Sequence record: PX290280.1
Length of the DNA stretch: 44,859 nucleotides
Origin: a phage
Direction: 5' to 3' (one strand)
Shown: piece after piece, positions 3,674-44,859 of the stretch
Layout: the number at the start of each line of letters is the position of its first letter
How positions within the stretch are numbered: the stretch's first letter is position 1
Position numbers and translations under genes: made by a program
The notes under the pieces: model-generated
Database searches by the model: none
Told to the model about the DNA's origin: nothing
Seen by the model: only the letters and a program-made list of their open reading frames with translations

Positions 3674-6301
3674 ATGCAAGACCTACACGCTATTCAACTT
3701 CAACTTGAAGAAGAAATGTTTAACGGCGGTATCCGTCGCTTTGAAGCGGACCAACAACGCCAGATTGCATCCGGTAATGAATCAGACACGGCATGGAATC
3801 GCCGCTTATTGTCCGAACTAATCGCACCTATGGCGGAAGGTATTCAGGCTTACAAGGAAGAATACGAAGGCAAGAGAGGTCGTGCACCACGTGCATTAGC
3901 TTTCATTAACTGCGTAGGAAACGAAGTGGCAGCATATATCACCATGAAAATCGTTATGGATATGCTGAATACAGACGTTACCTTACAAGCAATCGCTATG
4001 AATGTAGCGGACCGCATCGAAGACCAAGTACGTTTTAGCAAGCTGGAAGGTCACGCAGCTAAGTACTTTGAGAAAGTGAAGAAGTCACTTAAGGCTAGCA
4101 AGACTAAATCTTATCGTCATGCGCACAACGTAGCGGTAGTAGCTGAGAAATCTGTTGCTGACCGTGACGCGGATTTCTCCCGTTGGGAGGCATGGCCTAA
4201 AGACACCTTGCTGCAAATCGGTATGACCTTGCTCGAAATATTGGAGAATAGTGTATTCTTCAATGGTCAACCTGTCTTCCTTCGTACCTTGCGCACTAAC
4301 GGCGGAAAGCATGGTGTTTACTATTTACAGACCAGTGAACATGTTGGAGAGTGGATAACTGCATTTAAGGAACATGTAGCGCAGCTCAGCCCTGCCTATG
4401 CACCTTGCGTTATACCTCCCCGCCCTTGGGTATCACCTTTTAACGGTGGGTTTCATACTGAGAAAGTAGCAAGCCGTATTCGTCTGGTAAAAGGCAATCG
4501 TGAGCACGTCCGCAAGCTGACCAAAAAGCAAATGCCAGCCGTTTATAAGGCTGTTAACGCTTTGCAGGCAACTAAGTGGCAGGTTAATAAAGAGGTTTTA
4601 CAGGTTGTGGAGGACGTTATACGTCTAGACCTCGGCTATGGTGTGCCTTCCTTTAAACCACTCATCGACCGTGAGAACAAGCCAGCTAATCCAGTGCCGT
4701 TAGAGTTCCAGCACCTGCGAGGCCGTGAACTTAAAGAGATGCTAACGCCGGAACAATGGCAAGCCTTCATCAACTGGAAAGGCGAATGTACCAAGCTGTA
4801 TACCGCTGAAACTAAGCGCGGCAGCAAATCGGCGGCGACCGTCCGCATGGTTGGGCAGGCACGTAAATACAGCCAGTTTGACGCCATCTACTTCGTGTAT
4901 GCACTGGACAGCCGCAGCCGCGTCTACGCGCAATCTAGCACGCTCTCTCCGCAATCAAACGACTTAGGCAAGGCATTGCTCCGTTTTACCGAAGGGCAGC
5001 GTCTTGATAGCGCTGAGGCGCTTAAGTGGTTTTTGGTGAACGGGGCTAATAACTGGGGTTGGGATAAGAAAACTTTTGACGTGCGCACCGCTAACGTGCT
5101 GGATAGTGAATTTCAAGACATGTGCCGCGACATTGCAGCGGATCCGCTTACCTTCACTCAATGGGTAAATGCCGACTCCCCTTACGGCTTCCTTGCATGG
5201 TGCTTTGAATATGCGCGTTATCTGGATGCACTGGATGAAGGCACGCAAGACCAATTCATGACGCACCTCCCAGTCCATCAAGATGGTAGTTGCTCTGGTA
5301 TCCAGCACTATAGCGCGATGTTACGCGATGCAGTAGGTGCGAAAGCGGTAAACCTTAAGCCCTCTGACTCCCCTCAAGATATTTATGGTGCCGTTGCGCA
5401 GGTAGTAATTCAGAAGAATTATGCATACATGAATGCAGAGGATGCGGAAACCTTCACTTCTGGCAGCGTGACTTTAACAGGTGCGGAACTGCGTAGCATG
5501 GCTAGTGCGTGGGATATGATAGGAATCACTCGCGGCCTGACCAAAAAGCCCGTAATGACACTACCTTATGGCAGCACACGTCTAACCTGCCGTGAGTCAG
5601 TGATTGATTATATCGTTGATTTAGAAGAAAAAGAGGCCCAACGGGCTATTGCGGAAGGGCGTACCGCCAACCCTGTACATCCTTTTGATAATGACCGTAA
5701 GGACAGCCTGACACCTAGCGCAGCTTATAACTATATGACAGCTTTAATCTGGCCTTCTATTTCGGAAGTGGTTAAAGCTCCTATAGTGGCAATGAAAATG
5801 ATTCGTCAGCTTGCACGTTTCGCAGCTAAAAGAAACGAAGGCTTAGAATATCCCTTACCAACTGGCTTCATCTTGCAACAAAAGATAATGGCTACCGATA
5901 TGCTCCGCGTATCCACTTGCTTGATGGGTGAAATCAAGATGAGTCTCCAGATTGAAACAGATGTAGTTGATGAAACGGCAATGATGGGTGCGGCTGCTCC
6001 TAACTTCGTCCATGGTCACGATGCTAGCCACCTGATTCTGACTGTATGTGACCTAGTGGATAAAGGTATTACATCCATTGCAGTCATCCATGATTCTTTC
6101 GGTACTCATGCAGGACGTACCGCAGACCTGCGGGATAGCTTAAGGGAAGAAATGGTTAAGATGTATCAAAACCATAATGCCCTGCAAAACCTGCTAGATG
6201 TGCACGAAGAGCGTTGGTTAGTAGACACCGGAATCCAAGTACCAGAGCAAGGAGAGTTTGACCTTAACGAAATCTTAGTTTCAGACTATTGTTTCGCATA
6301 A
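3674..6301 (+). CDS. Single-subunit DNA-directed RNA polymerase (SP6-type)
   Basis: 875 aa; N-terminus [32 protein letters not shown] and much of the body match SP6 RNA polymerase as recalled; T7-RNAP-family segments [18 protein letters not shown] and IHDSFGTHA are present. Confidence 0.95.
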
Positions 6302-6308
6302 TATTAAT

Positions 6309-6340
6309 AGGCCATTCCTTAGGGAGTGGCCTTTTTCTTT
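6309..6340 (+). terminator. Intrinsic-type terminator after the RNAP gene
   Basis: 10-bp stem aggccattcc / ggagtggcct with a 4-nt loop, followed by TTTTTCTTT. Confidence 0.6.
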
Positions 6341-6374
6341 ACCTACTACCTGTAACATTTCATTAACATAAAGT

Positions 6375-6390
6375 GTCTCACATGTGAGAC
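6375..6390. repeat. 16-bp palindrome GTCTCACATGTGAGAC
   Basis: Perfect inverted repeat, ending 2 nt before the phage promoter at 6393. Confidence 0.8.
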
Positions 6391-6392
6391 TT

Positions 6393-6415
6393 ATTTACCG
6401 GACACTATAGGATAG
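6393..6415 (+). promoter_or_regulatory. Phage RNAP promoter (ATTTACCGGACACTATAGGATAG)
   Basis: Matches the 23-nt consensus shared by 12 sites. Confidence 0.7.
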
Positions 6416-6419
6416 CCGT

Positions 6420-6530
6420 CGGAGACGGGAAAGAAAGGGAAGATAAAGGATATAAAGGAAGTAATAGGTATTAAAGGTTATATAGGTTATCTAGGAATAC
6501 CTAGGAATACCTATTACCTTCTTCCTTCCT
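6420..6530. other. AT-rich iteron-like region between two phage promoters (candidate primary replication origin)
   Basis: Reiterated ATAAAGGA / ATAGGT motifs and a tandem CTAGGAATAC x2 (6491-6510), flanked by promoters at 6393 and 6587; same position as the T7 primary origin. Confidence 0.4.
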
Positions 6531-6565
6531 CTTATTACCACTTAGAGGAAGGGCAGACCTAGGTT

Positions 6566-6581
6566 GTCTCACATGTGAGAC
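6566..6581. repeat. 16-bp palindrome GTCTCACATGTGAGAC
   Basis: Perfect copy, ending 5 nt before the promoter at 6587; preceded by AAGGGCAGACCTAGGTT, which recurs at 44438-44454. Confidence 0.8.
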
Positions 6582-6586
6582 TTCGT

Positions 6587-6609
6587 ATTTACCGGACAGT
6601 ATAGATAAG
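6587..6609 (+). promoter_or_regulatory. Phage RNAP promoter variant (ATTTACCGGACAGTATAGATAAG)
   Basis: Consensus match with a C-to-G change in the core (GACAGTATAG). Confidence 0.55.
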
Positions 6610-6636
6610 ACTAACTCACTTTGGAGATTTTTAACC

Positions 6637-6765
6637 ATGCGTAACTTTGAGAAGATGACCCGTAAAGCTAACCGTTTTGACACGGAAGAAGGGCAGACGA
6701 AAGGCAAGAAGCTGAATAAACCTGTCCGTGACCGTGCATCTAAACGCGCTGCGTGGGAGTTCTAA
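6637..6765 (+). CDS. Hypothetical small basic protein (42 aa)
   Basis: GGAGA ribosome-binding site; immediately upstream of the primase gene. Confidence 0.45.
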   Translation: MRNFEKMTRKANRFDTEEGQTKGKKLNKPVRDRASKRAAWEF

Positions 6766-6768
6766 GTT

Positions 6769-8757
6769 ATGGCTATTATTCAGAATGTACCGTGTCCTGC
6801 CTGTCAAAAGAATGGACATGATATTACTGGCAACCATCTTATGATATTTGAGGATGGCGCTGGTTACTGTAACCGTGGTCACTTCCATGATAACGGCAAG
6901 CCTTATTACCATAAGCCAGAGGGTGGCATCGAGATAACCGAATTACCTATTACTGGCAATATCAAATATACACCTTCTCAGTTTAAAGAGATGGAGAAGG
7001 AAGGGAAGATTAGCGACCCTAAGCTACGCGCCATCGCACTTGGTGGTATGCGTATGAAAGACCGTTGGGAGGTCATGAATGAGCAAGAAAGGGCAGAACA
7101 AGAAGCAGAGTGGAAACTTGATGTTGAATGGTTCCTCACGCTTAAGCGTAAGAACCTTGTATCCCGTCACATTCGAGGTGACATCGCAGCAATGTACGAT
7201 GTGCGCGTTGGACACGATGAAGAGGGAAGAGTCAACCGTCACTATTATCCACGATATGAAAAGGGTGTGCTTGTTGGAGCAAAATGCCGGACGTTGCCGA
7301 AGGATTTTAAGTTCGGACACCTAGGTAAACTCTTTGGTATGCAAGACCTTTTCGGTATGAACACTTTGTCTCACGTGTTAGACAAGGGAAGACGAAAGGA
7401 TTGCTTGCTTATTGTGGGCGGCGAACTGGATGCACTAGCAGCACAGCAGATGCTCCTTGATTCTGCCAAGGGTACTAAGTGGGAAGGCCAGCCTTACCAT
7501 GTATGGTCTGTCAATAAAGGTGAGTCTTGCCTTGAAGAGATAGTGCAGAGCCGTGAGCATATCGCCCAATTCAAGAAGATTATATGGGGTTTTGATGGAG
7601 ATGAGGTGGGGCAGAAGCAGAACCAACAAGCTGCTCGCCTGTTTCCTGGCAAATCCTACATCCTCGAATACCCCTCTGGTTGCAAAGATGCTAACAAGGC
7701 ATTGATGGCTGGCAAGGCTAAAGAATTTGTGGATGCTTGGTTTAATGCAAAGTCATCTGATGAAGTCTTTGGTAGCCAGATTAAATCTATCGCATCTCAA
7801 AGGGATAAGCTCAAGGCTGCACGTCCAGAGCAAGGACTATCATGGCCTTGGCCTAAGCTGAACAAGGTAACGCTGGGTATTCGTAAGAACCAGCTTATCA
7901 TTATAGGTGCAGGCTCTGGTGTAGGTAAGACTGAGTTCCTTCGTGAAGTTGTTAAGCACCTCATTGAAGAACACGGTGAATCTGTAGGCATCATTTCTAC
8001 AGAAGACCCAATGGTCAAGGTGTCCCGTGCTTTTATCGGTAAGTGGATTGATAAGCGTATTGAGTTACCACCAACCAACGACCCGAAAGAAGACGGATAC
8101 CGTGAGGTGTTCGATTACACCGAGGAAGAAGCTAACGCTGCCATTGATTATGTGGCTGATACAGGAAAGCTATTTGTGGCTGACCTAGAAGGCGACTATT
8201 CGATGGAGAAGGTAGAGCAAACTTGCCTAGAGTTTGAGGCTATGGGAATTTCTAATATCATCATTGATAACTTAACGGGGATTAAATTAGATGAGCGTGC
8301 TTTTGGTGGGAAGGTTGGTGCACTTGATGAATGCGTCAAACGAATTGGTACTATCAAAGACCGACATGCGGTTACGATTTTCCTTGTCTCTCACCTTACA
8401 CGTCCTCCGGCAAACCGTACCCAACACGAAGAAGGTGGCGAAGTTATCCTTTCTGACTTCCGAGGCTCAGGCGCTATCGGATTCTGGGCATCTTACGCCT
8501 TGGGGATTGAGCGTAATACAAGAGCTGAAACGCTTGATGAAAGGACTACCACGTACATCTCTTGTGTCAAAGACCGCGACCAAGGTATCTACACAGGAAC
8601 CAAAGTCATGCTCAAGGGTGACATTCAGACCGGACGCTTGAGAGAACCACAAGCTAGAACAAGGTCGTTTGATACAGGCGAAGCAAGGCAACAAGAAGTA
8701 CCGGATTTACCGGACACTATAGAAGAGACAACATTTGACGATGAACAGGAGTTTTAA
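6769..8757 (+). CDS. DNA primase/helicase (T7 gp4-like)
   Basis: N-terminal zinc ribbon CPACQ...CNRGH, DnaB-type Walker A GAGSGVGKTE, and an acidic C-terminal tail ending DDEQEF. Confidence 0.9.
   Translation: MAIIQNVPCPACQKNGHDITGNHLMIFEDGAGYCNRGHFHDNGKPYYHKPEGGIEITELPITGNIKYTPSQFKEMEKEGKISDPKLRAIALGGMRMKDRWEVMNEQERAEQEAEWKLDVEWFLTLKRKNLVSRHIRGDIAAMYDVRVGHDEEGRVNRHYYPRYEKGVLVGAKCRTLPKDFKFGHLGKLFGMQDLFGMNTLSHVLDKGRRKDCLLIVGGELDALAAQQMLLDSAKGTKWEGQPYHVWSVNKGESCLEEIVQSREHIAQFKKIIWGFDGDEVGQKQNQQAARLFPGKSYILEYPSGCKDANKALMAGKAKEFVDAWFNAKSSDEVFGSQIKSIASQRDKLKAARPEQGLSWPWPKLNKVTLGIRKNQLIIIGAGSGVGKTEFLREVVKHLIEEHGESVGIISTEDPMVKVSRAFIGKWIDKRIELPPTNDPKEDGYREVFDYTEEEANAAIDYVADTGKLFVADLEGDYSMEKVEQTCLEFEAMGISNIIIDNLTGIKLDERAFGGKVGALDECVKRIGTIKDRHAVTIFLVSHLTRPPANRTQHEEGGEVILSDFRGSGAIGFWASYALGIERNTRAETLDERTTTYISCVKDRDQGIYTGTKVMLKGDIQTGRLREPQARTRSFDTGEARQQEVPDLPDTIEETTFDDEQEF
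8705..8727 (+). promoter_or_regulatory. Phage RNAP promoter inside the 3' end of the primase/helicase gene
   Basis: ATTTACCGGACACTATAGAAGAG. Confidence 0.7.
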
Positions 8758-8931: not shown

Positions 8932-8955
8932 GCTTGTCTCACATGTGAGACAGGC
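8932..8955. repeat. Extended palindrome hairpin (gcttGTCTCACATGTGAGACaggc)
   Basis: Core palindrome plus flanking complementarity, followed by TCTTATT. Confidence 0.8.
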
Positions 8956-10273: not shown

Positions 10274-10478
10274 ATTAAGCAAGGTTTGCTCTTGCGGTAA
10301 AGGTTATCGCAGTCGTATTGATGGCAAGTGTGAAAACTGCCGCACTAAAAGGCAGAAAGATCACAATAATAAATACCACATGCACTTAATGTATCTTGAC
10401 CTTAAAGCTACACCTGATTCTGTATTAGGTAAAAGTCTTAGAGTTAAATACTTTGGAGCAATCTATGAAATCAATTGA
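10260..10478 (+). CDS. Small zinc-finger-like protein (about 72 aa)
   Basis: CSCGKG...CENC motif; GAGG upstream; start taken at ATG 10260 rather than the track's 10233. Confidence 0.5.
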   Translation: MKTIKLSKVCSCGKGYRSRIDGKCENCRTKRQKDHNNKYHMHLMYLDLKATPDSVLGKSLRVKYFGAIYEIN

Positions 10479-12884
10479 TTGGAAGAAGGAAGCAGAAGGT
10501 CGTATCTTAGTAATGGATGCGGAAGCTAAAGGTCTGCTGGATACTATCCGCTACGGTCATCGTGAAGATGTACACATCATTTGCTGCATGGATTTGCTTA
10601 CTACAGAGGAGTTCTTATTCTTTGACCCATATGAGATGCGTGACCCTGAAGCAAGGGAACACCTGAAAGAGTGGGAAGGCCATCAAGATGGAACCTTGGT
10701 TGATGGTGTTAACTTCCTAAAGCACTGTGAAGCCATCGTCTCACAGAACTTCCTAGGGTACGACGGCCTTCTATTTGAGAAAGCATTCCCTGATATCTGG
10801 AAAGGCTTTAACTATACCGAGAGACGCGGCAAGGGCAGACTCCGCGCTGACCTGTGTCCGGTACGCGTCATGGATACGCTGGTCATGAGTCGCCTGTTAA
10901 ACCCCGATAGACGCCTTCCTCCGCAAGCATATGCCAAAGGTATGGGTAACGTCGCCCCTCACTCAATTGAGGCGCACGGCATCCGTATAGGCCGCTATAA
11001 ACCGGAGAACGAGGACTGGTCTAAACTAACTGACCACATGGTTCACCGTGTACGCGAGGACGTGGCGATAGGCCGTGACCTATTCCTCTGGCTATTTAAC
11101 GGAGAATGGACGGAGCACAAACGCCGTGGCGTGAATAAACGCACTGGCCTAGGTATTGAGACAGCCTTCCACATGGAGTCCATTGTGGCGCTGGAGATGA
11201 GCCGTCAGGCCGAGCGTGGATTCCGTCTGGATATAGATAAAGCATTAGCACGATGCGAAGAACTGGACGCTAAGATTGATGAGACAGTCGCAGCGTTCCG
11301 CCCTCACATGCCTATGCGTATCAAGTCTAAACCTTTTAAACCGGAAGAAAAGAATGAAGTATGCCAACGCGCAAATGAGTATGGAGCTAGCAACAATATA
11401 CCTACTGTCCTTGACCCCTCACACTTTCTTCATGCCGAGAGACGAGGAGATCGCAAGACAGTATGGAGTGTCACTACTAAGTCTGGTGATTGGTCGGCTA
11501 GTGTCAAGAAAGACTTTCCTCACCTTAGAGGAAACCGTAATGACACGCCAAGTATCAAGTGGATTGGCGCTTACTCGCCTGTTACTTTCGAAGAGATTCC
11601 CTTGGGTAACAGGGATACAGTTAAGCAAGTGCTCTATGATTATGGATGGAAAGGTGTTGAATTTAACGATACCGAGCAAGCGCATCTGGATGAGTATGGA
11701 GTGTTACCCAAACCTTGGAGTGGGAAGATAAATGAAAAGTCCCTTACTTTATGGCAAGAGAGAGCCGCACGTGAAGGTAAAACAGTCCCTGATTGGTGCT
11801 TGGGTATCGCTGCATGGTACATACTCGTATCCCGTCGTGGTACGATCCTTAACCGTGGTGACGTTGAAGCCTTCGACCAGAAGGGGGTGTGGCCTTCGCA
11901 AGCTGGTGTACGAAAGTGTCGCGGCCTTGTACCTGTAGCATTTAACAAGGAGTTAGGAATCAATGCGCAGCAATACTATGAGAGGTATGGGTGTTGGCCT
12001 ACGTCTGACAAGGATGACGGAGAGTGGCGTGTTCCGGCTGTGATGGTGCTGGTCTTGAACTACGTGTACTATCTCACTTCATGAATGACCCTGAGTATCA
12101 AGATATTGTACTGCATGGTGATATACATACTCATAACCAGATGAAGGCTGGTCTTCCCAAGCGTGATATGGCGAAGACATTTATATATGCCTTCTTATAT
12201 GGGTCTGGTATAGCTAACCTTGCAGCAGTATGCGGTGTTACTGAGGAAGAAATGAAGGAAGTTGTGGCAAGATTTGAGATTGAACTACCTTCCCTTGCAC
12301 GTCTTCGTGAGAATGTTATCGCACAAGGTAACAAGTTTGGCTATCTACAAGCACCTGATGGGCATTGGGGTCGCATCCGTATGTCTGGTGGTGAACTTAA
12401 AGAGCACACTATGCTTAACGTACTACTCCAGATGACTGGCTCTCTGTGTATGAAATACGCATTGGTCAGAGCGTTTGCAGTGATGCGCAAGGAGGGTGTG
12501 GCTCTAGATAGCATGGGTAACCCTTGCGGTGTAGCTAACGTGCACGATGAAATCCAGATGGAAGTACCTGAAGATGAGGTCTTGTATCTCAACTACGACT
12601 TGCCTTTCACCGTAGAAGGGTTCGAAACAGAGAAGGCTGCTGTGAAAGCAGTGTTCGATGCAGAGGAGAAACGTGTTCATGTGGATTCTGAAGGACGTAT
12701 GTGGTCTGCTGCAAATCTCGTTAGCGTTGATGCTGATGCTGGTGTACTTCATTGCCAGCGTCGTTATCACCGTGCAGGGCATATCATTGCCGATGCAATG
12801 ACTTGGGCTGGTCATTATTTGAAGATGCGTTGTCCGATGGCAGGTGAGTATAAGATTGGTGCAAGCTGGAAGGAAACACACTGA
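10465..12884 (+). CDS. DNA polymerase (family A, T7 gp5-like), interrupted by an apparent -1 frameshift near 12042
   Basis: The first frame reaches ...GEWRVPAV and stops at 12084. The next frame carries motif A DGAGLELRVLSHFM, motif B KTFIYAFLYGSG and motif C VHDEIQ, matching T7 DNAP as recalled. Re-reading G12042 joins them into one polypeptide. Confidence 0.85.
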
Positions 12885-13156: not shown

Positions 13157-13417
13157 ATGATTAAATATACTGCTTATCAGTTAACTAAAGACCGTAAGAT
13201 AGGTATTGAGGTTAAGGCTTGGGAGCGAGGTCATATCTCTGGAGTAATAGAGGTGCGTTCCAACGAAGGTATGATGATTAGAAGACACTTTAGTTTCGCT
13301 AAATCTACTTGTAAGCATTTAACAGAGGAACAATTCTTACATCATATTATTAATAATATTAAAGCTATCCAGCCTTATGCCAAGCAAGTTGTAGGTAATG
13401 TCACAGTAGTACATTGA
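13157..13417 (+). CDS. Hypothetical protein (86 aa)
   Basis: AAGGA ribosome-binding site; ORF track entry. Confidence 0.6.
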   Translation: MIKYTAYQLTKDRKIGIEVKAWERGHISGVIEVRSNEGMMIRRHFSFAKSTCKHLTEEQFLHHIINNIKAIQPYAKQVVGNVTVVH

Positions 13418-13439
13418 TTTACTGGACACTATAGAAGGA
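13417..13439 (+). promoter_or_regulatory. Phage RNAP promoter (consensus copy)
   Basis: ATTTACTGGACACTATAGAAGGA. Confidence 0.8.
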
Positions 13440-13502
13440 AAGCCTAGACAATCTAGGTTTATAAGGTAGTATAGGTAATTAAGTAAATATAGGAGATAAA
13501 AC

Positions 13503-13880
13503 ATGTCTATGGTAACTACTCTGGTATTTGTAGCTCAATACTTTCGTGGTCTGGCTAATAAGTTCAAGTCCAAGGCTATCAAAGCTATTGAGTCTCGCAT
13601 CGAGGCAGTACAGGCAGAGCAAGTTAAAGTTGAAGAACATCGTAGTTCTCAAATGATTGACTGCCATAACCGCTACTATGTGTCTCGTGATGACCTTAAT
13701 GCACGCCAAGTCAAAGAGGTTGAAGATATGATGGCACGTCACCAGCAAGAGCGTGACAGCCTGAAAGCTGAATTTGAAGAGAACAAGGCATCCATTGCTC
13801 GGGTACACCAAGCTGCATCTGACAGTCTGAAGAAAGAGATTGTTATGCTGGAAATAGAACTGGATAACCTGACCAAATAA
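13503..13880 (+). CDS. Hypothetical coiled-coil protein (125 aa)
   Basis: AGGAG ribosome-binding site; charged, helical sequence. Confidence 0.65.
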   Translation: MSMVTTLVFVAQYFRGLANKFKSKAIKAIESRIEAVQAEQVKVEEHRSSQMIDCHNRYYVSRDDLNARQVKEVEDMMARHQQERDSLKAEFEENKASIARVHQAASDSLKKEIVMLEIELDNLTK

Positions 13881-18604: not shown

Positions 18605-19144
18605 ATGTCACACTATGTATGTAAGAAATGCCACAATCGCTATGATAATTGCACCTGTGATTACAGTAAAGATGGAAAGATTAAAGCAGGCGATTATGTT
18701 GTACGACGTGAAAATTATCGGAACTTAGATTGGCTTAAGGTGTGTAACAAATTAGGTAAGAAGCCTGATTCAGTTTTCAAAGTTATAAATGACGAATCGG
18801 TTGGTAGCGCCATTATGCTTGAAGGTATAGAAAAGAGAGAATGGTATGCACCTTACTTTGAGCAAGTAGCTACTCCTCCAGTTTTATCTGAGTCCAACAT
18901 GTTGGACAACAATATGGTTACTAAGCCTAAACACTACGAGTTCTTCGAAGGTGTAGAAGTAATCACTGTCATTGCCCGTAGCATGACAGAGAAGCAATTC
19001 GCTGGTTATTGCATGGGTAACGCTTTGAAATATCGTCTGCGTGCAGGTAAGAAATTCAACACTGAAGAAGATCTGAAGAAAGCAGACTACTACAAAGAGC
19101 TATTCCAGAAGCATCGTCACGAATGTATTGATGAGGATATTTAA
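18605..19144 (+). CDS. Conserved phage protein with an N-terminal Cys-rich zinc-binding motif
   Basis: CKKCHNRYDNCTC at the N-terminus; C-terminal block HYEFFEGVEVI...GNALKYRLRAGKK...DLKKADYY looks like a widespread phage domain; GGAGG ribosome-binding site. Confidence 0.6.
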   Translation: MSHYVCKKCHNRYDNCTCDYSKDGKIKAGDYVVRRENYRNLDWLKVCNKLGKKPDSVFKVINDESVGSAIMLEGIEKREWYAPYFEQVATPPVLSESNMLDNNMVTKPKHYEFFEGVEVITVIARSMTEKQFAGYCMGNALKYRLRAGKKFNTEEDLKKADYYKELFQKHRHECIDEDI

Positions 19145-36366: not shown

Positions 36367-36649
36367 ACATGCAGCTACAGAGGACGAGGTTGGCATTCTG
36401 CATGGTGCTATTACCAAAATCTTCAATAAGAAAGCACAGGCAATACTGGACACTATAGAAGAAGACCCTGATGCAGCATTACATTTAGTGTCTGGTAAGG
36501 ATATTGGTGCGATGTGTAAGTGGGTTCTTGATAACGGCATTACCGCCACACCTGCTGCACAGCAGGAAGAGTCCAAGTTATCTAAGCGCCTCAAGGCTAT
36601 CCGAGAGGCATCCAGTGGTAAGATAATTCAATTCACTAAGGAGGATTGA
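36350..36649 (+). CDS. Terminase small subunit
   Basis: GTG start 4-5 nt after GGAGGGA; position directly upstream of the large subunit. Confidence 0.55.
   Translation: MSVHNKHAATEDEVGILHGAITKIFNKKAQAILDTIEEDPDAALHLVSGKDIGAMCKWVLDNGITATPAAQQEESKLSKRLKAIREASSGKIIQFTKED
36441..36463 (+). promoter_or_regulatory. Partial phage promoter inside the terminase small-subunit gene
   Basis: CAATACTGGACACTATAGAAGAA: core conserved, upstream ATTTA missing. Confidence 0.45.
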
Positions 36650-38547
36650 TGGCTAAGGCAAGAGAATCACAAGCGGAGGCTCTTGCCAGATGGGAGATGC
36701 TACAGGAGTTACAGCAGACCTTTCCTTACACAGCGGAAGGTTTGCTTCTCTTTGCAGATACAGTTATTCATAACTTAATTGCAGGCAACCCTCATCTGAT
36801 TCGTATGCAGGCGGATATCTTGAAGTTCCTATTTTACGGACACAAGTACCGCCTCATCGAAGCGCCTCGTGGTATCGCTAAGACAACACTATCAGCAATC
36901 TATACGGTATTCCGTATTATTCATGAACCGCATAAGCGTATCATGGTTGTGTCCCAAAACGCCAAGCGAGCAGAGGAAATCGCAGGTTGGGTAGTTAAAA
37001 TCTTCCGTGGCTTAGACTTTCTTGAGTTTATGCTGCCGGATATCTACGCTGGGGACCGTGCATCCGTTAAGGCGTTTGAGATTCATTACACCCTACGTGG
37101 TAGTGATAAGTCTCCTTCTGTATCCTGTTACTCAATCGAAGCAGGTATGCAGGGTGCTCGTGCTGATATTATTCTAGCGGATGACGTAGAGTCGATGCAG
37201 AATGCTCGTACGGCAGCGGGCCGTGCCTTGCTTGAGGAACTGACTAAGGAGTTTGAATCTATCAACCAGTTTGGGGATATCATTTACCTTGGTACACCTC
37301 AGAACGTAAACTCTATCTACAACAACCTACCTGCTCGTGGTTACTCTGTTCGTATCTGGACTGCGCGTTACCCTTCAGTAGAGCAAGAGCAATGTTATGG
37401 CGACTTCCTTGCACCTATGATTGTTCAAGATATGAAGGACAACCCAGCACTTCGCTCAGGGTACGGGTTGGATGGTAATAGTGGTGCACCTTGTGCCCCT
37501 GAAATGTATGATGATGAAGTCCTGATTGAGAAGGAAATCTCTCAGGGTGCTGCTAAGTTCCAGCTTCAGTTCATGCTTAACACTCGCATGATGGATGCTG
37601 ACAGATACCCATTACGCCTGAACAATCTAATCTTCACCTCGTTTGGTACAGAGGAAGTCCCTGTGATGCCTACGTGGAGTAATGATTCCATAAACATCAT
37701 TGGTGATGCACCTAAGTATGGTAACAAGCCTACGGATTTCATGTACAGACCTGTAGCTCGCCCATACGAATGGGGTGCTGTCTCCCGCAAGATTATGTAT
37801 ATTGACCCTGCGGGTGGTGGTAAGAACGGAGATGAGACGGGTGTAGCCATCGTATTCCTGCACGGCACATTCATTTATGTGTATCAGTGCTTTGGTGTAC
37901 CTGGCGGATACCGAGAGTCGTCCCTGAATCGCATTGTGCAGGCCGCAAAGCAGGCGGGTGTTAAAGAGGTATTCATTGAGAAGAACTTTGGTCATGGCGC
38001 GTTTGAGGCGGTAATTAAGCCGTACTTTGAACGAGAGTGGCCTGTAACTCTGGAAGAGGATTACGCCACCGGACAGAAAGAGTTGCGTATCATTGAGACG
38101 CTGGAGCCGCTCATGGCAGCCCATAGGCTTATCTTCAATGCAGAGATGGTGAAGTCAGACTTTGAGTCGGTACAGCACTATCCGCTTGAACTACGCATGT
38201 CCTACAGTCTTTTCAATCAAATGTCGAACATAACGATTGAGAAGAACAGCCTCCGGCACGATGACCGCCTAGACGCCCTGTATGGCGCTATACGGCAATT
38301 AACTTCTCAGATAGACTATGACGAGGTTACACGGATTAATCGCCTCAGAGCGCAGGAGATGCGCGATTACATCCATGCTATGAACACACCTCATCTACGC
38401 AGGGCAATGCTATATGGAGATTACGGTACTGAGCGAAGAGTGACCAACACTTCCGTAGCGATGCAGCAGCGAGTTTACGGGCAGAACTACCGAAATAAAT
38501 CGGCAAGCAGAAATACACTTTCTGCAAGGATTTCAAGGACTTATTAA
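36649..38547 (+). CDS. Terminase large subunit
   Basis: 633 aa; Walker A-like EAPRGIAKTT; AAGGAGG ribosome-binding site; synteny. Confidence 0.85.
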   Translation: MAKARESQAEALARWEMLQELQQTFPYTAEGLLLFADTVIHNLIAGNPHLIRMQADILKFLFYGHKYRLIEAPRGIAKTTLSAIYTVFRIIHEPHKRIMVVSQNAKRAEEIAGWVVKIFRGLDFLEFMLPDIYAGDRASVKAFEIHYTLRGSDKSPSVSCYSIEAGMQGARADIILADDVESMQNARTAAGRALLEELTKEFESINQFGDIIYLGTPQNVNSIYNNLPARGYSVRIWTARYPSVEQEQCYGDFLAPMIVQDMKDNPALRSGYGLDGNSGAPCAPEMYDDEVLIEKEISQGAAKFQLQFMLNTRMMDADRYPLRLNNLIFTSFGTEEVPVMPTWSNDSINIIGDAPKYGNKPTDFMYRPVARPYEWGAVSRKIMYIDPAGGGKNGDETGVAIVFLHGTFIYVYQCFGVPGGYRESSLNRIVQAAKQAGVKEVFIEKNFGHGAFEAVIKPYFEREWPVTLEEDYATGQKELRIIETLEPLMAAHRLIFNAEMVKSDFESVQHYPLELRMSYSLFNQMSNITIEKNSLRHDDRLDALYGAIRQLTSQIDYDEVTRINRLRAQEMRDYIHAMNTPHLRRAMLYGDYGTERRVTNTSVAMQQRVYGQNYRNKSASRNTLSARISRTY

Positions 38548-38568
38548 TTACTGGACACTATAGAAGGA
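38546..38568 (+). promoter_or_regulatory. Phage RNAP promoter
   Basis: AATTACTGGACACTATAGAAGGA. Confidence 0.8.
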
Positions 38569-38598
38569 AGGCCCAGATAATAAGATAAATAATAGGTA

Positions 38599-38619
38599 AT
38601 ATATATATATATATATATA
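38599..38619. repeat. (AT)n dinucleotide microsatellite
   Basis: About ten uninterrupted AT units, followed at 38653-38672 by hairpin gggtgtac-tcct-gtacaccc. Confidence 0.7.
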
Positions 38620-38717
38620 GGTTAACCTAGGTTATATAGGTATGCCTTAGTATGGGTGTACTCCTGTACACCCTATTCCTTACTTCCTTACTATATTTAC
38701 ATAATAGGAGAGAGACA

Positions 38718-44286: not shown

Positions 44287-44413
44287 GCAAGCTGCTGTAC
44301 GCCAGAACGCAGAAGAACTTATTCAATCAGGACGTGACCCTAAGCAGGCATACGCCATTGCCAAGGATGTACAACGTCGTGCCTTGAAGAAACCTTCTGC
44401 ATCTTCTGCTTAA
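44264..44413 (+). CDS. Small basic protein at the right end (50 aa)
   Basis: GAGGAG ribosome-binding site 4 nt upstream; overlaps the tailspike stop. Confidence 0.4.
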   Translation: MPLIKSVKQAAVRQNAEELIQSGRDPKQAYAIAKDVQRRALKKPSASSA

Positions 44414-44419
44414 GCAGGT

Positions 44420-44859
44420 TAATATCTTAGTGTACACAAGGGCAGACCTAGGTTTGCTCTTAGTGTAATCCAAGGAGGTAACATGCAAGAGGGGAATTGG
44501 GATGTGTAATGTTGGATATGGAGAAGGTTGAACCTTAGTGTTGTACAAGGATTAACCAAAGTCAAAATTTTGATATAGGCGTGTGTGAGGTGTCTCGCCC
44601 TCGCCCTCGCCGGATTTCCCCCATATGGGGCCGCGCTGCGGTTGGCTTGGGAATTGGGCTAGGCTGGTCCGTCTTCGACGGGTGGCCTAGGGCTTGCCGA
44701 AGTCTGCTCTTAGTGGCTGCACAAGGAGAACGCCTAGGAAGCGCTAGGGCACGCCTTAGTATTGGACAAGGTGATTGCCTTAGCGCAACCGCTTAGGGCT
44801 TACACAGGCCGTTTTAGGGCCATTCCTGAGCATTTGACAGGGTGAGCGTGGGTGGGCTA
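44420..44859. repeat. Right-end repeat region, GC-rich, probably part of the terminal repeat
   Basis: Reiterated CTTAGTG-N(6-9)-CAAGG units; 44438-44454 is identical to 6549-6565; GC content clearly above the genome average. Confidence 0.55.

Follow-up and report, generated by a model that had tools for sequence, protein, structure and literature searches.

The genome considered here (sequence record PX290280.1; the window is this whole stretch, 44,859 bp, 44.7% GC, complete) is that of a Vectrevirus (K1E/K1-5), a member of the SP6 supergroup within Molineuxvirinae. Between its RNA polymerase (RNAP) gene and gene 8 lies a module, 6375-6636, that contains two phage promoters, P1 and P2, and is a candidate for a transcription-primed replication origin. 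Here we document the anatomy, synteny, and cross-genus conservation of this module, the low stability of its duplex, and its paralogy with a second module located behind the terminase gene. On the plus strand, the RNAP gene is followed by an intrinsic terminator, dyad 1, P1, a stem-loop, a purine arm, a tandem 10-mer, a pyrimidine arm, a 17-mer, dyad 2, P2, a 33-nucleotide (nt) untranslated region (UTR) that separates the P2 start site from gene 8, gene 8 itself, and the primase-helicase gene (Table 1). No plus-strand open reading frame (ORF) of at least 20 amino acids (aa) was detected between 6367 and 6636, and a scan of 6200-6800 found no sigma-70 promoter. The region has no match above the gathering score in Rfam 15; the best one, to a model of a plant miRNA precursor, scores 24.8 bits where 85 are required.

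Table 1. Features of the module behind the RNAP gene and of related loci in the same genome
Feature	Coordinates	Strand	Basis or remarks
RNA polymerase gene	3674-6301	+	
Intrinsic (host-type) terminator directly 3' of the RNAP gene	6309-6342	+	ten-pair stem, six G-C pairs, TTTTTCTTT tail
Dyad 1, GTCTCACATGTGAGAC, 2 nt 5' of P1	6375-6390	+	copy search
Phage-polymerase promoter P1, ATTTACCGGACACTATAG (6393-6410 including +1)	6393-6409	+	exact promoter-family match
Stem-loop CCGTC-GGA-GACGG near the 5' end of the P1 transcript	6416-6428	+	covariation
Purine arm, C-free, purine-rich, AT-rich	6427-6490	+	longest C-free run in the genome (64 nt)
Tandem CTAGGAATAC x2, palindrome center	6491-6510	+	copies at 6491 and 6501
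Pyrimidine arm, G-free, pyrimidine-rich, complements the purine arm	6506-6544	+	second-longest G-free run in the genome (39 nt)
17-mer AAGGGCAGACCTAGGTT	6549-6565	+	exact repeat
Dyad 2, GTCTCACATGTGAGAC, 5 nt 5' of P2; predicted hairpin with U-rich tail in the P1 transcript	6566-6581	+	
Promoter P2, ATTTACCGGACAGTATAG (6587-6604 including +1), variant ..ACAGTATAG	6587-6603	+	promoter-family match
Gene 8, 42-aa basic protein, T7 gp1.1 homolog	6637-6765	+	
Primase-helicase gene	6769-8757	+	
Shorter third module, upstream of the ORF at 13503	13417-13502	+	promoter, TAGGT-type repeats
Paralogous module after the terminase large-subunit gene	38546-38717	+	promoter, TAGGT repeats, (TA)n, CCTAGG, GC hairpin, pyrimidine tract
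Hairpin with the right-end 17-mer copy, AAGGGCAGAC-CUAG-GUUUGCUCUU, between the last two small genes	44438-44461	+	hand pairing

All of the elements named in a preliminary description of this DNA were recovered. The promoters that it placed at 6393 and 6587 are exact matches to a family with 12 sites in the genome, all on the plus strand (0.04 expected), their activity being predicted; each is preceded, as claimed, by the 16-bp palindrome; the segment that they bracket is indeed AT-rich (29.8% GC at 6430-6523 and 28.7% at 6444-6523, compared with the genome average given above); the reiterated motifs, including ATAGGT, and the tandem repeat are all in place, far above chance expectation; and the 17-mer recurs exactly at the right end (44438-44454). 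P1 is kept at the same position in 39 loci. By analogy with the SP6 promoter, we infer that transcription starts (+1) at G6410 for P1 and at G6604 for P2.

The product of gene 8 is 59% identical to T7 gp1.1 over 41 aa (E = 1e-13, pairwise comparison), and the SP6 RefSeq record likewise names its counterpart gp1.1; the gene shows 72-98% nucleotide identity among enteric genera. Because the gene that follows P2 is a gp1.1 homolog, the region corresponds in position to phi1.1A/phi1.1B of T7, and the previously noted likeness to the T7 primary origin, just after gene 1, amounts to true positional homology. Judging from gene order and homology, 6375-6636 is the SP6-group counterpart of phi1.1A/phi1.1B and the start of the DNA-metabolism transcription unit. 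In T7, phi1.1A/phi1.1B is where replication begins, phiOR and phi6.5 being secondary origins (PMC8373140), and T7 RNAP transcripts prime the DNA polymerase (bioRxiv 10.1101/2024.07.25.605042). On the T7 map, the interval from gene 1 to gene 1.1 holds phi1.1A (+1 at 5848) and phi1.1B (+1 at 5923), and then an AT-rich tract. The two regions share their place in the genome, ~14.5% of the way in from the left end and flanked by the RNAP gene and the gp1.1 homolog; they also have in common two rightward phage promoters, homologous replication machinery, and a low-stability AT-rich tract with short reiterated motifs. They differ in the spacing of the promoters (194 nt here, 75 nt in T7), in the ~110-nt palindrome described below, in P2 being directly followed by a ribosome-binding site, and in the terminator and dyad that precede P1, whereas the T7 terminator TE is located further downstream, at 7588.

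The layout is widely conserved. Seven aligned genomes from four genera show an identical order of parts. The same holds for many of the loci inspected among 80 IMG/VR loci retrieved with the RNAP C-terminus: a terminator and a dyad precede the promoter, which is followed by short repeats, purine-rich and recurring every 9-11 nt, often by a second promoter, and by the first middle gene. The loci with this layout come from enteric phages of seven genera, from Pseudomonas phages, and from metagenomic contigs resembling Vibrio phages. The repeat itself is clade-specific: TAGGTA in enteric phages, AGTAG in Pseudomonas syringae phages, and a TAAGAG-like motif in the Vibrio-phage-like contigs. The complementary pyrimidine arm is present in the enteric genera only. 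More than 100 phage records match the surrounding 451 nt, with 94-99% identity to K1E, K1-5, and other Vectrevirus and 60-80% identity to SP6, Klebsiella, and Proteus relatives. At the position of the RNAP terminator, a hairpin is kept across genera, and the annotations of phages KAW1A4500 and Premi list it as a terminator. Among Vectrevirus genomes, identity to the window is 82-100% in the non-coding purine arm, compared with 85-92% in the adjoining coding end of the RNAP gene, which argues for purifying selection on the purine arm. Two apparent insertions turned out to leave the module intact. In ULINTec4 (L002, MZ997839), the insertion at ~690-900 is a T-rich low-complexity run of ~220 nt after the T stretch of the terminator, annotated as a hypothetical protein and probably an assembly artifact; in PhiNW-E1, the apparent insertion sits downstream of P2. 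A Salmonella phage contig (L034) carries, from ~1919 onward, a different ORF after P2 in place of the gp1.1 homolog.

Among 80-nt windows, the AT-rich tract between the promoters falls in the lowest 0.5% of GC content, and it ranks about tenth among the distinct AT-rich segments of the genome. The C-free and G-free runs of the two arms set the locus apart more clearly than its base composition does. AGG trinucleotides start at 6436, 6447, 6456, 6466, 6475, 6484, 6493, and 6503, with a spacing of 9-11 nt; ATAGGT occurs at 6464 and 6482, and ATAAAGGA at 6443 and 6452, these being its sole two copies in the genome. The tandem pair likewise accounts for the sole two genomic copies of its 10-mer, the number of which varies, with one copy in K1-5 and most relatives. 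Inverted-repeat alignment of 6435-6543 yields 40 Watson-Crick pairs and delineates an imperfect palindrome of ~110 nt.

The preliminary description called the reiterated motifs iterons, a term that we abandon: they are short, imperfect, and 9-11 nt apart, and constitute the arms (AGG/TAGGT) of the palindrome. In a classical iteron origin of the plasmid or lambda type, an initiator would bind direct repeats and melt an adjoining AT-rich element. Reiterated motifs do adjoin AT-rich DNA at this locus, but the units are imperfect and about 6-15 nt long, compared with the required 17-22 bp direct repeats, and the overall arrangement is inverted, not direct. Furthermore, the neighbors are RNAP, the gp1.1 homolog, and the primase-helicase, with no Rep- or O-type initiator adjacent, and the replication machinery is T7-like. 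An origin of this type is thus highly improbable here.

A different possibility is that the region functions as a transcriptional or RNA element only, with no role in replication. Under this scenario, tandem middle-class promoters would drive the replication genes, and the P1 leader would carry a stabilizing stem-loop and a long AU-rich processing or stability hairpin, the counterpart of T7 R1.1, an RNase III site between phi1.1A and phi1.1B (it is absent from the annotation of the T7 record). The 5' stem-loop at 6416-6428 does covary: across the 39 loci, its third pair is G-C in 27, A-T in 7, T-A in 4, and C-G in 1, with 0 mismatched, and this hairpin is retained in the RNAalifold consensus of 25 sequences. 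Hairpin-forming sequences also occur, as judged by eye, 3' of most other phage promoters in the genome, which likewise speaks for an RNA element, and the stem-loop is therefore probably not origin-specific. Hairpins at +4 to +40 were noted by eye for the promoters at 2391, 13417, 14185, 18532, 23682, and 40227; T7 late transcripts likewise start with short hairpins.

The evidence from the long palindrome is divided. The P1-P2 interval folds better than shuffled sequences (z = -2.49), a long central hairpin is predicted in every enteric genus from differing sequence, and in all clades inspected it is the RNA-like strand of the repeats that is rich in purines, all of which would be expected of an RNA element. 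However, the interval also folds as DNA (z = -2.2), and the two strands fold alike (-32.1 and -31.6 kcal/mol). Mismatches of the G.U and A.C types are nearly balanced in the palindrome arms (24 vs 22), so that this wobble-bias test for RNA-level selection on the palindrome gave no RNA-specific signature. The RNAalifold consensus of the same 25 sequences did not recover the long helix, only two short hairpins. The perfect helix extends over just 12 bp, or ~17 bp with one mismatch, which is short for RNase III. In our reading of the alignment, changes that break the helix occur in three Vectrevirus variants, and none of these is compensated. Finally, the Pseudomonas and Vibrio-like relatives retain the promoter and the repeats without the complementary arm. 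Because there is no wobble bias, no strand asymmetry, and no consensus long helix, the symmetry looks like a property of the DNA, or neutral; nothing marks it as an RNA-specific structure such as an RNase III site, although it may still be one. The resemblance to R1.1 consists in hairpin-forming sequence between tandem promoters after the RNAP gene; the hairpin here is much longer, AU-rich, and built of repeats, without RNA-specific covariation or wobble bias. We consider an exclusively transcriptional or RNA role the chief alternative, possible but less likely than an origin role, and the origin and leader roles need not exclude each other, as in T7. Two regulatory sponges were considered and rejected by eye: one for CsrA (GGA), given that the motif is clade-dependent and the Pseudomonas phages have no GGA, and one for Hfq (ARN triplets), given that the enteric phages show no consistent triplet phase.

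To compare the tract with known origins, nearest-neighbor duplex stability was scanned in 50-nt windows, with the T7 genome as the control. Among the six 50-mers of lowest stability in T7, five are located just downstream of phiOL, phi1.1B, phi6.5, phiOR, and phi10, so that the scan recovers the known T7 origin regions. In the genome studied, the 50-mer behind P1 (6443-6492) takes rank 5 when duplexes are ordered from the least stable upward, whereas rank 1 belongs to 38575-38624, behind the terminase gene, and rank 6 to 13450-13499. The homologous tracts of SP6 rank third (post-terminase), fourth (post-RNAP), and first (post-polymerase), and the post-RNAP repeat tract of Pseudomonas phage Achelous is the least stable in that genome. 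An easily melted tract lies directly downstream of P1 but not of P2, where the short UTR leads into gene 8. A promoter followed by low-stability DNA is also what the T7 secondary origins (phiOR, phiOL, phi6.5) present.

Phage T4 ori(uvsY)/ori(34) and ColE1-type R-loop origins combine a promoter with an unwinding element behind it. The P1 tract resembles them in this arrangement and in that, when RNA:DNA and DNA:DNA nearest-neighbor energies are compared, 6408-6457, the first 50 nt of the P1 transcript, is the second most hybrid-favoring segment of the genome. R-loop energetics was nevertheless rejected as a property of the family: the energies of the T7 origin tracts point the wrong way, and SP6 P1 does not reach the top ten. 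Nucleotide skew was likewise discarded as evidence of an origin. Cumulative GC and AT skews are monotonic; the GC-skew change-point falls at 6980 in this genome (p about 0.02) and at 6690 in SP6 (not significant), where the scan also gives a weak, non-significant local maximum at 10,736, below that at 6,690. The T7 control fails, with the best breakpoint at 1083 rather than at the origin.

The module has a paralog after the terminase large-subunit gene (36646-38547), the product of which is 79% identical to the SP6 terminase. The promoter at 38546 and the stop codon of this gene overlap, the (TA)n run is located at ~38600-38620, and the GC hairpin is formed by GGGTGTAC..GTACACCC; nowhere in the genome is the DNA less stable or richer in AT. 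The post-terminase and post-RNAP modules align along their length in the genome studied, in SP6, and in Proteus phage Pm5460. The position of the post-terminase module is that of T7 phiOR, which lies ~100 nt after the terminase gene (gene 19); the two modules are clear paralogs here, whereas such a relationship is not obvious for phi1.1B and phiOR. The SP6 counterpart of the shorter third module (~12545-12625) is the least stable duplex in SP6.

In all three of these genomes (the one studied, SP6, and Pm5460), TAGG/CCTA peaks mark the post-RNAP and post-terminase positions, and in Achelous, 16 of the 34 genomic copies of AGTAG fall within two 100-nt windows, post-RNAP and post-terminase. Motif clusters thus occupy the same two places in each genome, so that the clade-specific repeats evolve in step at both origin-equivalent loci. 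In T7, the tract of phi1.1B is enriched in k-mers that are seen again at phi6.5 and phiOL. Such concerted change could reflect an array of sites for a phage or host protein, with the phased TAGGT/ACCTA motifs serving in middle-gene regulation or in concatemer processing and packaging, and not in initiation. The 9-11 nt spacing, about one helical turn, the opposite orientation of the motif on the two arms, and its dependence on the clade combined with the match between two loci within each genome are all compatible with protein binding, and one of the loci is at the position of phiOR, which in T7 is linked to concatemer processing. On the other hand, no candidate binding protein was seen, the motifs are short and degenerate, and the T7 origin tracts share k-mers in the same manner, although we know of no binding protein for those tracts. 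We regard this explanation as unlikely.

The existence of the other modules bears on the designation of the post-RNAP locus as the primary origin in the preliminary description, which is unsupported: the post-terminase module is the least stable, and the third module follows the promoter at 13417. Either the post-RNAP or the post-terminase module may be the main origin, and we only tentatively entertain this role for 6375-6636, considering it less probable than the opposite. The three modules are short, cloneable fragments (6375-6636, 13417-13502, and 38546-38717), of which the first and third are predicted to be functionally equivalent.

In the origin model that we propose, by analogy with T7, phage RNAP would initiate at P1 (+1 at 6410), and transcription would enter the low-stability, purine-rich, AT-rich tract at 6430-6523. 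The nascent RNA would then be taken over by the phage DNA polymerase as a primer for rightward synthesis, as in T7, and the primase-helicase, encoded just downstream, would load onto the displaced strand. P2 would keep the gp1.1 homolog and the primase-helicase expressed, and the dyads ahead of the promoters would act as weak terminator or insulator hairpins. That 6375-6636 acts as such a transcription-primed origin in vivo is the explanation that we favor over its rivals, although we hold it only about as likely as not.

Several observations weigh against this model. The AT-rich tract lies between the promoters, whereas in T7 it follows both. Neither AT-richness nor low stability is unique to the P1 tract, given its fifth rank and the first rank of the post-terminase tract; 5' UTRs are AT-rich in any case, and in Pm5460 the P1 tract is outside the eight least stable segments of the genome. 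An ordinary mRNA would be equally expected to have a long leader and, at its 5' end, a stabilizing hairpin. The 6980 breakpoint in GC skew is confounded with the boundary between early and middle genes. In the searchable literature, we found no experimentally mapped origin in any SP6/K1E-type phage and no origin statements in two genome papers on related phages. According to a secondary source (PMC4837284), Dobbins et al. 2004 put the SP6 origin at the DNA polymerase gene.

The palindrome GTCTCACATGTGAGAC has 8 copies in the genome at no more than 2 mismatches (0.01 expected), and only three of the 12 promoters, those at 6393, 6587, and 15331, have a dyad upstream. Dyads of 16-17 nt, mostly intergenic, start at 325, 6375, 6566, 7368, 8936, 10119, 15300, 18892, and 31845; they have the form GTCTCAC(N2-3)GTGAGAC, and the one at 18892 is of the SP6 type, GTCCAAC..GTTGGAC. 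The latter form, with both arms altered, occupies the dyad 1 site in SP6 and Klebsiella phages. Dyads are syntenic in the genome studied, SP6, Pm5460, and Achelous, with both arms co-varying between clades, and are absent from T7. By hand pairing, the stems at 8936, 10119, and 31845 extend to ~13-14 bp with G.U pairs and are followed by a U-rich tail, and one Pm5460 copy lies within an annotated rho-independent terminator. The dyads are best read as terminator- or insulator-like hairpin elements that are genome-wide and not origin-specific, and may represent a terminator or insulator for the phage polymerase. Their sequences appear in no paper of the searchable literature.

The 17-mer has exactly two genomic copies, at 6549 and 44438, against 0 expected, and is conserved in Vectrevirus and Zindervirus but not in Klebsiella phages. 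By hand pairing, the right-end copy supplies the loop and the 5' arm of a different, conserved hairpin, of which SP6 has a compensated version, AAGGGUUGGC-UUAG-GUUGACCCUU; this segment is conserved in 102 phage records. No phage promoter match and no obvious AT-rich tract lie alongside it, and this copy lends no support to a role in replication. A possible link of the 17-mer to replication, and the only one, involves primase recognition: neither GCA nor TGC occurs in 6410-6552, and the sole GCA between the promoters, at 6553, is inside the 17-mer, although it is missing from the Klebsiella phages. The SP6 primase recognition site is 5'-GCA-3' (PMC2034472). In T7, the primase site in the AT-rich cluster is reportedly unused for priming (PMC12839067), so that, by this analogy, a primase site within the tract may not be a defining feature of an origin.

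A more specific and rather speculative version of the origin model, to which we assign a low probability, is that SP6-supergroup phages use sequence-specific origin modules, in which the clade-specific repeats would bind a dedicated factor, perhaps the primase-helicase or the basic gp1.1 homolog, and the P2 dyad would be a terminator specific for the phage polymerase that releases a P1 primer RNA of ~170 nt. Such modules, if real, have not been described for T7. Phages of the SP6/K1E type have a therapeutic use against encapsulated E. coli, and expression systems make use of their RNA polymerases. With a defined origin module, orthogonal replicons could be constructed, as already built from T7 origins, and such a module would show whether transcription-primed initiation at modules made of a promoter and an unwinding element is general in Autographiviridae.

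Two further features of the genome were noted. The DNA polymerase frame is split, with 10453-12084 corresponding to residues 1-531 of the SP6 DNA polymerase and 12024-12884 to residues 568-849, which points to a frameshift or a sequencing error at ~12,030-12,080. The genome ends (1-540 and 44400-44859) carry dense arrays of short repeats of the CTTAGTG / CCTTAGT type, which resemble the arrays near the ends of T7-like genomes.

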